Position numbers: made by a program. From Escherichia coli (GTDB lineage Bacteria > Pseudomonadota > Gammaproteobacteria > Enterobacterales > Enterobacteriaceae): a stretch of 64,000 nt of DNA. The stretch lies in the NCBI RefSeq assembly GCF_030013205.1, contig NZ_CP122649.1. One strand, written 5' to 3'. Each line of letters begins with the position of its first letter. The first letter of the stretch is position 1. Positions 12,001-18,000 of the stretch are shown here, piece after piece.

Positions 12001-15000
12001 GCTTTACCTTCTCCCAGATCAGATTCAAAGTAATTCCGCTTTACCCCAATCTGCTTTGGTCTTCCATTAATTCTGACGATTTCATGCCGCTCGTCGAAGA
12101 TAAAACCCTCTCCGACCAACGTCAGGAGGACAAAAGGGCCCTCGGCCTTTTGCGTACCCAGCGAACTCATCTCATTATTCATACGACCTCCCCGGTAATA
12201 CGCTTAAAGTTGACGACCCAGACCCACGGGTTGGCCTGCCAACTGTCCTCGCCGTACGTGTTTTTCCAGAGGCTGCGGAAGCCAAGAAAGTGCTTATCGC
12301 CAAGAACACAACATTCTGTTGGTGCGCCTTCAGCTTTGGCATCTTCCTCGCTGATGGTATTTAACCGCTCTACCCGCAAATCGGTAATTTCCAGTGCAAT
12401 ACGGCTGGCCCAGCGAGGCATATGGATTGAAGGTGTCCACGCACCTTCGAACTTCATATTTTCGGTACGAGGCTTCCAGTCGGCCTCATCAGGGATCGAC
12501 CACAGCCCATAATCCCCCGACCGCTGTTCGCAGCTCGCCCGGTAAATGCGGGCTGCTTCAGTCCTGTCCATCACGATGTTGTCATTCCAGTCCACCGCGC
12601 ACGCATCTTCATTCCCGAGCAATGAAAACGCCTCACGGACCGTAATGCGGTCGCCAACTACGCCGTACGGACAAGGCCGAAGCGCCGAGTATGGCTGGGT
12701 CCCTGTTGGAAGCCACCAGTCATGCGTGTGCCCGCGATGTCGCGGTGTTTGCGCAGGCCTTATAGACCATTCATCCGAACTATATTGAGGCTTTATAATC
12801 CGCCGCGTCTGTGTTTTCTGATCTGCCAGAATTGCCCGGACCATTTCATCATTAAAAAGCATTCCACGTGTCTTCACTGTGCTGACTCCTTTCACACATG
12901 GTTCACACATTGAGAGGCCTATCCCTCTTTATCAGCCAGGCATACCGAAACTGTCGGTAGTTTTACGGGAACGGGCAACTGCCCCCCTACCTGATAAAGT
13001 GGTGTTCTCCCCCAAAATTAATCGTATTCCCCATCCACTACCGGCTCAGTCGTAATTTCATATTTCACTCCGCCGGGTACATCCAACGCTTTAGCGACGG
13101 ACTCACACAGCAATGACAAATCATTCAGGGTCATTGGGTATTCAACTTCCAGGCTGTGCAGTGCATTGGCGCTGGCAGCAGCAGCCTTGTCAGCATGACA
13201 GGCATTAAAAACGAAAACGGTGGTTTTTTCTTGAATAGGCATAGTGCAATCCTCTGAATAATTAGCCCTGTGATCAGGGCGGTTTTTGATTAAATTTAAA
13301 TGTTCGTTTTCAATAATTAGTGAATCTGTTAATCGGGTTGTGACTTATCATTTTCTCCAACCGAAGTGCTGTCGAGAAATGACCATTCTTGTTTGGGGCT
13401 TTTATATAATGCACTAGCCTCAGTACTCATCCATGACTCACAGGCTTTATAAGTCATGCCTTCCTCTCTAACGCGGTCCTTAAAATACGCCCAGGCTTGC
13501 AGATCAAGCGGCTGATACTCTTTCAGCGACTGGTCAAGCCTTTCCTTCCAGATTTTCTTCCGATGAGTAAAATGAGGAAAAGCCAGGAATGCATAACTAC
13601 CTGCAACAAAAAAAAAGAACAGGAGTCCGCCCCATAGAGAATGTTTGAAAAACACCAGTCCTGGGAAAATCCATGCCACAATGGCAACAAATAAAAGAAG
13701 GTGCTCCTTCCCAGTAGGTTTATTAAAATGCCAGGAAATTGCAATACACTTTAATTTACTAAAGTGATTTTGTTTCTCCTTAATATCGGTCATATATCAG
13801 TCCTTACTTATAAAAAAATGGTTATTATTAGTCTGATGTAAAAGTTACTTTTCAAAACAGTCCCTTTAACGAATTCCGCACCTGCGCTCATTACAACACA
13901 CACCATTCGGCGCTTTTTCCGTTAACGGGGCTATTTTCACGTTTTTTGCACGTATGTCTGATTTTGCTGGTGGGCTCACGCCAGCACGCGGACCATACGT
14001 TTCAACAGAGGCCTTAACAACGCCGCCGTCCTCTCCCGGCATTCATCCACATGCCGGAACCCCGTCTTTTTCGAAGACTGGGGGCCGGATAACATCCGCA
14101 GCTCCCAGATGACTTCCCGTAAGGTTCCTTCGCGCTCCGGCGAAATACACCCGGCTAATGTCTCCAGAAAGCGTTTTCTTACGGCCCGGTAATACAGACG
14201 TTCTTCCGGTTGCTGTGACGAAATCCGCAGGTTACAGAGGGTCAGGACAGCGTCAAGAGTCCTTGCCTTCAGTTCGTCTCCCGTCCGGGCCAGATGTAGC
14301 TGTTGTTCTGTCTCCAGTTGCGTCGTTATCCACCCCCCCAGAGGGGTTTTGTTGTAGGTGTGCAGTGCCACACAGGCCGCAACACAGCACCAGAAGCGCA
14401 GTTTCTGCCGCTGCCCCCGCAGTTTGCGGGCTACGAGCAAGCGATAATCGCTGTCGGTCAGGATCTTGAAACGGCGGCTGGCGAGCAGAGACGGCAGCGG
14501 CGTCTGGTCGTTAATGCCAAGACGTGAATAGGCCTGCCCGCGTTGAGCGAGTCGATGGTACACCGCACCTTTCCCCCGCGAAATTCGGACGGCGCCGTAT
14601 CTAAGCAGGTACTGTGCCGCCGCCACAGGGGTAAACTCACCGTCAGACACACGCTGGCGTAATCCGTCATATTCATGCCAGATAATCCAGGATGCCGTGT
14701 CTTCATCGACCGTCAGCTCATCCTCTTCTTCGAATGCAACGATGTTCAGGCCTTCCCCGCTACTCATCAGACTGCGGGAAGCTCGCTCATCCTCCCGACC
14801 GTCAAAATAGGCTATTTCGGATGACGGATCGGACAGCCCGTCAAATGACGTCCCGATACGGCCTTCCGGCAACTTCATCCAGCGTGGTGCTGGCATCGGC
14901 GTGCGGGGTACTGGTTGCATAGCTGGCTCATCGTCGAGAAGATCCAGTGCCCCCCCTTCCCACACCTGGCGGTAAAGTTCAATGGCACGAAATGGGCGCG

Positions 15001-18000
15001 GGTTAAAGCAATGCAGTGACCAGAGAAAGTCGATATGCAGCACGTTAGCCTCCTGCACCAGTCGAAACTGCGGCTCCGACATGCGGCGGTTATGCGCGGT
15101 ATCTTCGATCTCGCCTGAAAGTAACTTTTCATGCACCGCTGCGGCCCGCTGAGCCTCCACGTAATCGAGGCTGCAACAGATATGGAACAGTCTTTCGGTC
15201 AGGGACGACGAGAACACATTGGGCTGAAGACGCACATACCCGCCCTCAAACACTTTGCGTCCGATATAATCCCGAAGGCTCCAGTCGTACTGAATTTTGG
15301 TCAGGAAACGCTGAAGGCGGTTGAGACCAGCCTGGTAGCCGTACTTCTCAGGGTCAGTGCGGAGTAAGGTTTCCATCGAGTGATCAATGCCGACGGCGCA
15401 GCATAGCGAGCATCCATAGCGAGCGCCGCAGGCAGAAGACCGGACAGTGGATTTCTCCGGCGTCCAGATACATTCCCCGGTCGCGTCTTTGTAAAGCGTG
15501 GCGAGGCTGAAGTTGTCCGGCAAAAAGCTTGGCAGCGGAAATCGCGCCAGAGAACCACAGGCCATCAGAAATGACCAGATATCCTGTGCCCGCCACTCTT
15601 TCACCGGGTACAGTTCGCCGCCGTGCTCCGTGAGCGAGACGCTGTCCGCCTGCCCGCCCATTCTTAGGATGTTGTCTGCCCGACGGGCGCTCTCATCATC
15701 GCGGGAACCCAGCATCAGGCACACTTTGTTGCGGACAGAAGCAGGTGCATTTTTCAGATAACGGGCTTTGGCCTGGCGCAGTGGAGAACGCTTTAGATCT
15801 GTAGCGCATTGACGCGTAGAAGAATTTGTCCAGGTTGGAAGTCCACGCCCGGTCAGAATGCGTCCGACCCAGCTCTGGGTCATGGACGGGCGGGCCACAA
15901 GGACGGTCAAAGGCAGTTCTTGTTCGGCAATAAAGGCTCTGAGCTGGCTGAGAACCTGCGTGGCCTGATGATGCATCTCAGGGTTTTCAATCAGGGTGTC
16001 AGACATCTGAATGAAGTGGTGCTGGCTGACGTTCGACCCGTTTCGTACTGCACGGATCAAGGCCATAAGGAACAAGTGCAGTAGCGAGTGAGAGTCTTTC
16101 CCGCCGCTGTAGCCGACGCACATGGTCCAGCCTTCGGTAATCGCATGATAAATGGCACTGGTTGCCGTCGTCACGCGCGAAGCGAGACTGACCGGCTCAC
16201 CGGCATCAGTATAATTCAGATCCGCATCGGTCTTCAGTGTCTGCCAGACATCGCCCCATTTATCCTGCGTCAGAATGGCAGCGTTAGCCGCCTCAGAAAA
16301 TTGAATTTCTGAGGGTAATTCAAGGAATGTTTCTTTCATTTCGATATACATATTATTTCCTGAATTTGGCTTTCGCTGTATTGTCGCGATATTTATTAAA
16401 TCCATTTAATATCTTCAGCGCAATATGTGAAGCTAAAAATAGTTAAATTGAAATCATGCCAATTTAATTAAATAACACTGAACAAATAAAATTACGCGGC
16501 AATAAATATATTATGTTCTCCACGCTCTCACGAATACTGCTGGGTAATTAAAACCGTCGCATTTGATTCCAGCTCTGCCAACGGAATTAGGGGCGTATTG
16601 AGCATCATGTCATCGCCGCAATGACGGGGTACAGCCGTCAGATGAAATGATTCTTTCATGACCCGGATGGAAGTTGTTTCCGTGCGGCAGGAGGGCATTA
16701 CGTCCCGGAGCATCGTTTCCTGTCCGCTGCTGTCACTTTCAATAAACGCAGCCTGCGACATGAGAACCTCAATGTCCTCTTCCAATGTTTCGGACCAGTG
16801 GCAGTCATAGAAGAAAAACTCGGCGGCGTACAAATCATTTTCTTTCACGTATGCCGCCAGTTCACGGATACGCTTAGCCAGCGACGTATCAATGGAAAAG
16901 AAGACGCTTTGCGGGACATCACTCGCAAATTCATTGATGCAGCTAGCGGACAAAATCAGGATTTTATTGGTCATTTTCAGCTCTCCATGCCACCGGCTGT
17001 TCCGGTGGCAATCAGGGATTATCAGGCAGTCACGGGGCACAATTCGTCAAGTGAAGGCAGTAATTTGCTCAGGCTTTCGTACACGACGGGCATCAATTCA
17101 GTGACGCTGTGAAGCGCCATGCTGGTATTGTCTTCTTCGCTGAGAATGATAACTCCATCCTCACCAGGATTGTCGGGCGTGCTCTCGTCAGAGGCCAGGC
17201 GGTGGCGTGCAACGTCATAAGCCGATTCTGATTTTTTGCAGCTCATCAGATAGCATTGAGTGTATGTGTATTCGTGGTTGTACTGGTTCACTTTCACCAA
17301 CGCATACTGAACACCGGCATCATGAGCTTCGTTCATCAGGCGAGAAAAATTAAAGCCTTCTTCGTAGTGGTGTGTATCTTTAGTCACCACAATAGTCGCA
17401 CCGCCGAACTCGTTTTCGCGTGGTCGGTCGCAGACGAAAGCGGCATTGATTGTGACCATCTCAGGCAGGTTAAACACCGACAACACGGCAGTTGTTACCG
17501 CGATAGCGTGGTCGAGGTTAATGCTTTCATCATGGCAGATTGCCAGGCCTTTACCGGTGATTTCCGCTTTGAGTTCCAGCTCGTAATTGTTTTCTGGTGA
17601 CTCCGACTGACCAAAAGTCGGCTCAAACGGATCGCACTCCGGGTGGTTCTGAATAATACCCAGGACAAGCAATTCAGTGAGGGAACACTCTGAAACCGGT
17701 TTAGACAGCAAGTGTTCACCTTCCGCCACATCCGTGTCTGTAACATACGCAATCGCGTCCAGTGCCATCTGTGCCTGTTCCTGTGAACAGAGAATTGTGA
17801 AGGATGCCTGAGTGTAATTGTTCGCCATTGCATAACTCCTTATTTAATTAAATGTGATTGCTGTCTGTGAATAGATAATATCAAAACAGATACCTGCACC
17901 TAATAACCAATAATGAAATATGTTCGAAATTTTTATAGAGCAGACAGCGCCATATTTAATAATCCAACTTTTATTCTGGATACGGTGTAAAATAAATATA

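Follow-up and report, generated by a model that had tools for sequence, protein, structure and literature searches.

We describe here a gene for a DndC-like PP-loop protein carried on an IncHI1 plasmid, located at positions 13976-16351 of a 64,000-nucleotide (nt) stretch of contig NZ_CP122649.1 from Escherichia coli assembly GCF_030013205.1; the whole of this stretch is referred to as the window. The window is IncHI1 plasmid backbone: over bases 13300-17100, identity is 100% with many IncHI1 plasmids from E. coli and Salmonella, and 99.9% with pHCM1 of S. Typhi CT18. The encoded protein, WP_000275146.1, is likewise identical (100%) across many IncHI1 plasmids. An earlier note on this DNA reported a protein of 791 amino acids (aa) with a PP-loop and a cysteine cluster, and we confirm the open reading frame (ORF), the SGGKDS motif and the CGARYGCSLCC cluster at this place. 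The gene and the parts of its product map as follows.

13976..16351, minus strand: complete coding sequence, 791 aa plus stop; RefSeq WP_000275146.1, 'phosphoadenosine phosphosulfate reductase family protein'
15008..16189, minus strand: DndC-type catalytic core, aa 55-448 (hhalign, NCBIfam, PADLOC, Foldseek)
16091..16108, minus strand: PP-loop ATP-pyrophosphatase motif SGGKDS, aa 82-87 (motif search)
15398..15430, minus strand: cysteine cluster CGARYGCSLCC, aa 308-318 (motif search and alignment)
14456..15007, minus strand: family-defining middle module, aa 449-632 (homolog coverage, phmmer; no relative in Pfam, in the PDB or, outside the family, in AFDB)
13979..14455, minus strand: variable, basic, all-helical tail, aa 633-791 (homolog coverage; helices 633-790 in the model)

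Architecture of the encoded protein

Profile comparisons and homolog coverage identify the protein as a stand-alone, three-part member of the DndC-type PP-loop ATP-pyrophosphatase/[4Fe-4S] sulfurtransferase superfamily, in a branch confined to plasmids. Alignments of 58 family members and of 8 true DndC proteins were compared as profiles by hhalign, which pairs aa 55-448 with DndC positions 36-409 of 527 at a probability of 100 and an E-value of 4.2e-51. This region comprises the PP-loop alpha/beta domain, the loop with the cysteine cluster and a helical/beta-hairpin subdomain. S82, G84, K85, D86, S87, C182, C294, C308, C314 and C317 are invariant in the 58 family members, so that the catalytic residues are preserved over identities of 26-75%, and the five cysteines coincide with those invariant in DndC (WC..., GEC, SCG and GCxxC). 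Because the aligned span extends from aa 55 to 448 and every conserved cysteine is present, the N-terminal 450 residues are, judged by this alignment, a complete DndC-type core, in agreement with the DndC/IbrA-type assignment made previously from the motifs.

Searches with single models agree on the kinship and limit its closeness. The best NCBIfam match by E-value is PRK06850 (NF005316; 3e-37, aa 58-444), at 128.5 bits and thus short of the cut-off of 536. The DndC model TIGR03183 follows with aa 66-380 (E 8e-33), spanning model positions 7-303 of 447 only and scoring 114 bits, below its cut-off of 290.4. TtcA gives a weak NCBIfam match at the PP-loop (E 0.005), and the CysH, CysD and FAD-synthase models give no match in that collection. 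Pfam PAPS_reduct (PF01507) matches weakly, over aa 78-263 (E 3e-5). With the PADLOC profiles, DndC is matched at E 2e-37, 'MTase_II', a type II methyltransferase model, at E 4e-23 in the PP-loop part and BrxP weakly at E 1.8e-5, with no match to SspD; the 'MTase_II' model probably represents a fusion of a phosphoadenosine phosphosulfate reductase (PAPS) domain with a methylase. The full-length AlphaFold2 model is confident (pLDDT 89.7, pTM 0.80). Foldseek against the PDB matches the N-terminal PP-loop domain alone, to the FAD-synthase PAPS domain, CysH and TtuA folds, over about 230-290 alignment columns at 13-20% identity.

Since the score falls below the DndC cut-off and the operon expected of DndC is lacking, the protein is not a DndC equivalog, although its motifs are DndC-like. 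The likeness extends over about 390 residues and takes in SGGKDS and five cysteines, among them those of the GEC...SCG...GCxxC cluster, the seat of the Fe-S centre in DndC. In contrast, no dndD, dndE or dndA gene is annotated on pHCM1, an unrelated extension of 343 aa stands where DndC has its C-terminal approximately 120 residues, and the plasmid family is plasmid-restricted and usually solitary. By the same comparisons the protein is not IbrA, SspD, BrxP or CysH. PRK06850, which we take to be IbrA (whose partner is the ParB-like IbrB, in prophage and mobile-element pairs), is the top NCBIfam match, and a 669-aa subfamily of the plasmid proteins, in which the gene follows a DndB of the ParB/DGQHR fold, has the same two-gene logic; however, the score remains far from that of a member, the window holds no adjoining ParB-like gene, and the C-terminal part is different. 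SspD and BrxP share the PP-loop PAPS-reductase fold and an enlarged multi-domain build, the PADLOC BrxP profile having about 780 positions, but no PglZ, BrxL, BrxC or SspB/C is annotated on pHCM1. BrxP furthermore has no DndC-specific cysteine dyad and includes DUF1795-like and DUF4007 regions (PMC12839542), whereas the plasmid protein keeps the DndC cysteines and has neither region.

The portion without a DndC counterpart is aa 449-791. The earlier note had put the C-terminal extension at roughly 450 aa; an extension there is, but with DndC homology reaching aa 448 it measures about 343 aa, in two parts, within the approximately 470 aa that follow the cysteine cluster. The middle module, aa 449-632, is covered in 57 of 57 homologs at a mean identity of 35%, its conserved positions including P487, G505-L506-x-D508, G586 and R604. 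Coverage of the tail, aa 633-791, falls to 29 of 57 homologs at 21% mean identity; it has an isoelectric point of 9.9 and is missing from the 669-aa subfamily. A phmmer search with aa 451-791 against 1.84 billion representatives returned only 62 clusters. In the full-length matches (at least about 550 aa) the matched stretch lies some 385-530 residues in, behind the PP-loop core, and the shorter matches are fragments. Fusion of the C-terminal module to other domains elsewhere was therefore rejected, as the module is always placed C-terminal to a PP-loop core. The C-terminal part modelled alone reaches a pLDDT of 86.8. Sequence-profile searches of the extension in Pfam and the PDB found nothing, and Foldseek against AFDB50 yielded no structural relative outside the protein's own family, nearly all matches being named PAPS reductase and the rest unnamed. 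Searches and models thus describe the extension as a family-specific module of no recognised fold followed by a variable helical tail.

We note that large plasmids of Enterobacter, Klebsiella and E. coli often carry alleles without the PP-loop half, among them a form spanning aa 313-788 only, at 71% identity, and forms of 600, 582 and 484 aa. These reflect either lineage-specific decay or a function of the C-terminal part on its own.

Distribution and gene neighbourhoods

The family is a plasmid-restricted, conserved backbone gene of several conjugative plasmid families, in which it is usually solitary. By tblastn, relatives occur in 2,650 of 72,556 PLSDB plasmid records (3.6%), 2,052 of them typed conjugative, and the IncHI1 allele itself (at least 99% identity) in 212 plasmid records. 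Among 5,426 complete E. coli genomes, 107 carry this allele, in 110 places of which 109 are on plasmids; 106 of the 109 matching records are full length and at least 99% identical. Other plasmid families, IncC and those of IncHI2 size among them, retain intact orthologs at 45-76% identity. The IncC ortholog is 48% identical and 817 aa long, relatives at about 75% identity sit on enterobacterial plasmids of 210-380 kb, which from their size and hosts are probably IncHI2, and Pseudomonas, Burkholderia and others harbour more distant forms of about 600 aa. Matching records in the phage collection number only 5. The sole one matched at full length is a 127.7-kb Salmonella record, which gives exactly the match seen with IncC plasmids, and a phage origin was rejected on these grounds, this record not being a phage genome.

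In pHCM1 the gene lies at 11,663-14,038 within an array of about 26 kb of minus-strand, mostly small genes. The array crosses the record origin, extending from about 19 kb to 211.5 kb, where it abuts the end, at 211.4 kb, of the Tra1 relaxase operon, which includes mobI (201.4 kb) and the genes for the MobH relaxase and the coupling protein. The array points to Tra1, with the 10-kb relaxase operon separating it from the origin of transfer (oriT) and mobI. The immediately neighbouring genes could be assigned to HNH nuclease, DUF6012 and DUF3085 families only (Pfam, NCBIfam and PHROGs, with 10 neighbours searched in NCBIfam and PHROGs).

That no Dnd partners accompany the gene, as had been stated before, stands: no Dnd, Ssp or BREX component is annotated on all 218 kb of pHCM1, an annotation that may be incomplete. 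On the same full annotation, the candidate explanation that the protein works in a Dnd, Ssp or BREX system whose other members lie elsewhere on the replicon, named in advance as one that would overturn the earlier description, was rejected. A tblastn search with plasmid DndB at E <= 1, run on the window and on the 1-77 kb and 170-218 kb segments of pHCM1, found none. Two neighbouring ORFs of 393 and 268 aa were considered as a hidden DndB/ParB-like partner and rejected, BLASTP against plasmid DndB being blank.

Across other plasmids the picture is more varied. The reported lack of a ParB-like partner is borne out in the window, IncHI1 and IncC, and no ParB-like/DGQHR gene adjoins the ortholog in the other contexts examined, but it fails in a sister subfamily on MOBF/MPF_T plasmids, where the 669-aa form is directly preceded by a gene for DndB (PF14072, DGQHR) and an ORF of 91-108 aa. 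The orphan state therefore holds for IncHI1, IncC and the other contexts examined and not for the whole family. Apart from this DndB, no conserved partner emerged from an all-against-all BLASTP of flanking ORFs in six contexts, or from four more contexts. The six-context comparison retrieved only two small ORFs, common to IncHI1 and one Citrobacter plasmid. They lie at window positions 18376-18708 (110 aa) and 9911-10231 (106 aa); in Citrobacter pRHBSTW-00714_2 the 110-aa homolog stands immediately upstream of the ortholog, and an accessory role for the 110-aa ORF as partner is possible.

The array around the IncC ortholog is similar and also co-directional, and includes genes for a Dcm methylase, an N6/N4 methylase, YfbR and a Toprim primase; the ortholog follows DnaB in a Citrobacter MOBH plasmid and in a Pseudomonas plasmid. 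In the MOBF plasmid NZ_CP149824.1 the array includes an N6 methylase, DUF1419, ArdA, a toxin-antitoxin pair, DUF4942 and LPD29, and is co-directional towards a trwA-like/T4CP/MobF module 17-19 kb away, from whose genes the place of oriT was deduced. Co-directional small genes, orphan methylases, ArdA, DUF4942 and LPD29, all oriented towards oriT, are likewise features of the leading-region anti-defence islands of conjugative plasmids (Samuel et al. 2024, PMC11541004), although neither PAPS reductase nor DndC is mentioned in the text of that paper. A leading-region position, within roughly the first 30 kb to enter the recipient, is plausible for the MOBF ortholog and no more than a candidate assignment for the IncHI1 window.

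Further observations concern related arrays. IncL plasmids carry a solo DGQHR gene in an equivalent array with ArdA and ssb. The DUF3085 and DUF4942 families are common to this IncL array (ArdA, ssb, solo DGQHR/DndB-like gene) and the IncHI1 arrays, with DUF3085 at window 8146-8652 and DUF4942 at pHCM1 34,194-35,870 (approximately window 36.5-38.2 kb), which hints at a common pool of establishment genes. In Vibrio parahaemolyticus the ortholog is found about 3 kb downstream of a Prok-E2_D and ThiF (E2/E1-like) pair.

Possible functions

The earlier statement that the substrate, whether DNA, tRNA or a small molecule, cannot be read from the sequence holds. We nevertheless tentatively favour, without calling it probable, an establishment or anti-defence enzyme whose substrate would be nucleic acid, most probably the DNA of the plasmid itself. 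Action on nucleic acid, and likely on DNA, is suggested by the DndC ancestry, by the adjacency of DndB in one branch, by the methylase and primase neighbours and by a fusion of PAPS and Dam domains in a phage: a vibriophage escapes Dnd through two transferred phage-specific genes, one of which encodes such a fusion (bioRxiv 10.1101/2021.05.05.442762). This fusion, p0018, resembles the plasmid protein as a mobile-element PAPS protein without Dnd partners and with a counter-defence link. It differs in being 479 aa long with a Dam domain, whereas the plasmid protein has no methylase domain, possesses the full DndC cysteine cluster and C-terminal modules of its own, and is near-absent from phage genomes.

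We propose that the gene may belong to the accessory establishment/anti-defence arrays of conjugative plasmids and that its product would operate as follows. ATP would be used to activate a phosphate or base position, and sulfur would be drawn from the host cysteine desulfurase IscS, which is able to replace DndA in Dnd systems (PMC8569181), and transferred via the Fe-S/cysteine site. The C-terminal modules would take the place of DndD and DndE, the substrate-handling partners that canonical DndC needs, and the modification so made would protect entering plasmid DNA against the nucleases of the host. Evidence for the favoured reading includes the intact catalytic motifs, invariant in 58 homologs, and the confident structural model. 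The DndB/DGQHR gene upstream in the 669-aa subfamily provides a link to DNA; the PADLOC 'MTase_II' match is a further point. The ability of IscS to replace DndA and the dispensability for plasmid maintenance suggested by a published R27 deletion, taken up below, are also in keeping with this reading. The plasmid niche, the neighbouring orphan Dcm and N6 methylases, primase, DnaB and YfbR, and the NZ_CP149824.1 array, laid out as in leading-region anti-defence islands, point the same way.

Several observations weigh against it. Every characterised phosphorothioation system needs, besides the PP-loop protein, an ATPase (DndD, SspC or BrxC), and likewise a nick-binding protein or nickase, DndE or SspB (PMC8569181; PMC12839542). 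No such ATPase and no DndE/SspB-type partner is annotated on pHCM1, and the extension shows no fold that would obviously stand in for DndD/SspC or DndE/SspB. The curated DndC cut-off is missed (114 versus 290.4 bits), and N-terminally truncated, PP-loop-less alleles are common in related plasmids. The 10-kb relaxase operon parts oriT and mobI from the IncHI1 array, and the direction of transfer from oriT in MOBH elements (IncHI1, IncC, SXT) was not found in the literature consulted on the point. The literature search, finally, returned no paper on this plasmid gene and no experimental data on the family. The most novel form of the proposal, a single-polypeptide enzyme for sulfur (or related) modification of nucleic acid, in which C-terminal modules substitute for DndD/DndE and host IscS alone is required and which marks conjugative plasmid DNA at the backbone or a base, is put forward as an unlikely one.

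Two of the alternatives retain a nucleic-acid or defence context. A DndC/SspD/BrxP mimic might engage or sequester the Dnd, Ssp or BREX type 4 partners of the recipient, with the outcome that the incoming plasmid is marked as self or that the restriction arm is not triggered. We deem such interference doubtful. The vibriophage region with a PAPS-domain protein gives escape from Dnd (bioRxiv 10.1101/2021.05.05.442762) and PAPS reductases have been noted in Aca-regulated anti-defence operons (2026 preprint). The DndC-like surface is conserved while own partners are absent from the pHCM1 annotation, and the MOBF subfamily has anti-defence neighbours. However, the whole catalytic apparatus is strictly conserved, which argues for catalysis rather than decoy binding, and phosphorothioate-based defences are a minority of systems in enterobacterial hosts. 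An RNA-directed enzyme that thiolates or otherwise modifies tRNA or another RNA, for example tuning the translation of plasmid genes or guarding tRNAs from anticodon nucleases, would follow the precedent of the PP-loop/[4Fe-4S] tRNA thiolases TtcA and TtuA, the former a weak NCBIfam match and the latter among the Foldseek matches in the PDB, and would suit a protein with a basic tail and no DNA-handling partners. The similarity to DndC is nevertheless far stronger (E 8e-33 against 0.005) and covers 390 residues including the DndC-specific cysteines, and the DndB adjacency and methylase neighbours point to DNA, which makes an RNA substrate quite unlikely.

The remaining alternatives deny the gene such a role. 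It might be a decaying or host-neutral passenger without a current plasmid function, as could be supposed from truncated alleles in several plasmid lineages, from a GC content of 56.4%, some 10 points above the flanks and suggestive of foreign origin, and from a published deletion without stability phenotype. In that work, R27 was deleted in 19 blocks, deletion 5 being 67,055-74,086 (Tassinari et al., PMC4853401). The P1 homology arm of this deletion maps to window 18980-19026, so that its 7,031 bp would cover about 11.95-18.98 kb of the window, the gene included, if R27 is colinear here. Since plasmid stability was unaffected by the deletion mapped over the gene (PMC4853401), replication and inheritance in E. 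coli MG1655 seem not to require the gene. Against a mere passenger stand the full-length state and near-identity of 106 of the 109 records from 107 E. coli genomes, the 212 plasmid records, and the intact orthologs at 45-76% identity with invariant catalytic residues, which imply purifying selection over long divergence; we consider loss of function very improbable. An ordinary CysH or FAD-synthase-type small-molecule enzyme, conferring a metabolic trait, is hardly credible. The 'PAPS reductase' name, the PF01507 match and the CysH and FAD-synthase PAPS domains as closest solved folds speak for it. On the other hand, no CysH, CysD or FAD-synthase model of NCBIfam is matched, the fold matches are confined to about 230-290 columns at 13-20% identity, the cysteine cluster is of the DndC type and no sulfur-metabolism genes lie in the context. 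Identification as CysH or another metabolic enzyme was rejected, as no CysH model matches, the best matches are DndC models and a single-domain CysH has about 240 aa against 791 here. Best homologs of the CysH kind would have undone the earlier note's description, and the PAPS_reduct and DndC searches gave DndC models as best matches instead.

Returning to the favoured establishment or anti-defence enzyme, a DndC-type enzyme is here met in a new architecture and niche, on clinically dominant resistance plasmids. The gene belongs to the conserved backbone of IncHI1, the plasmids of typhoid multidrug resistance, with orthologs on IncHI2-size and IncC plasmids. Were the DNA modified or the immunity of the recipient disarmed, the gene would join the determinants of plasmid host range as a new one and might serve as a target against the spread of antimicrobial resistance. 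If the modification proposal is true, resistance plasmids of the IncHI1, IncHI2 and IncC groups would bear an epigenetic mark not seen before, with which they escape the immunity of recipients, and the protein would be the first DndC-type enzyme without DndD/DndE, bearing on the organisation of phosphorothioation chemistry. If the protein is inert, a widespread 'PAPS reductase' annotation on antimicrobial resistance plasmids would have no metabolic meaning.

Start site, base composition and palindromes

The gene had also been associated with an 'ASCH/HNH' operon in the same array. The genes at window 11316-12910 match phrog_874 and phrog_30913 (no assigned function) and phrog_2118 (HNH endonuclease). 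The HNH part is thus recovered, but these genes are not conserved neighbours, being absent beside the ortholog in the five other plasmid families compared.

Three further features belong to the surroundings of the coding sequence.

16352..16405, minus strand: possible 18-codon N-terminal extension; the upstream in-frame ATG gives an 809-aa form, UniProt Q935R1
15117..15129, no strand: intragenic imperfect palindrome GAAAGTAACTTTT, one mismatch; plasmid-wide motif
13840..13852, no strand: perfect palindrome in the spacer 3' of the gene, 53 nt ahead of the start of the following ORF (13329-13793)

From the first ATG, the ORF listing gives 13976..16405 (minus strand) and 809 aa. The RefSeq start is the ATG at 16351 (MYIEMKE...), yielding the 791-aa form, with GGAA upstream at a spacer of 6 nt. 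Residues 1-24 of that form are of low confidence in the AlphaFold2 model. Both the 791-aa and the 809-aa form are possible.

The gene has 56.4% GC, and 62.8% at third codon positions, compared to about 47% in the backbone (flanks 8000-13975 and 16352-22000) and a published average of 45.8 +/- 4.6% for IncHI1 core genes (PMC5390554). The IncC and other-plasmid orthologs show a much smaller excess. These values suggest that the gene was acquired long ago from a source richer in GC.

Both palindrome copies that had been connected with the gene exist, but the connection itself does not hold, as they belong to a motif spread over the whole plasmid rather than to this gene in particular. The palindrome (G)AAAAGTWACTTTT(C) has 18 sites in the window at no more than one mismatch, against 0.17 expected, at 958, 1076, 7602, 13840, 15117, 19005, 21939, 29086, 30424, 36046, 39686, 41542, 45335, 46374, 49427, 51320, 51736 and 62625. 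On a crude ORF map, 10 of the 18 fall between ORFs, typically 50-350 nt upstream of an ORF start. The copy at 13840 more likely belongs to the control region of the next ORF than to the WP_000275146.1 gene, and from its placement the motif looks like a regulatory element of the whole plasmid, a putative operator of a plasmid-wide regulator.

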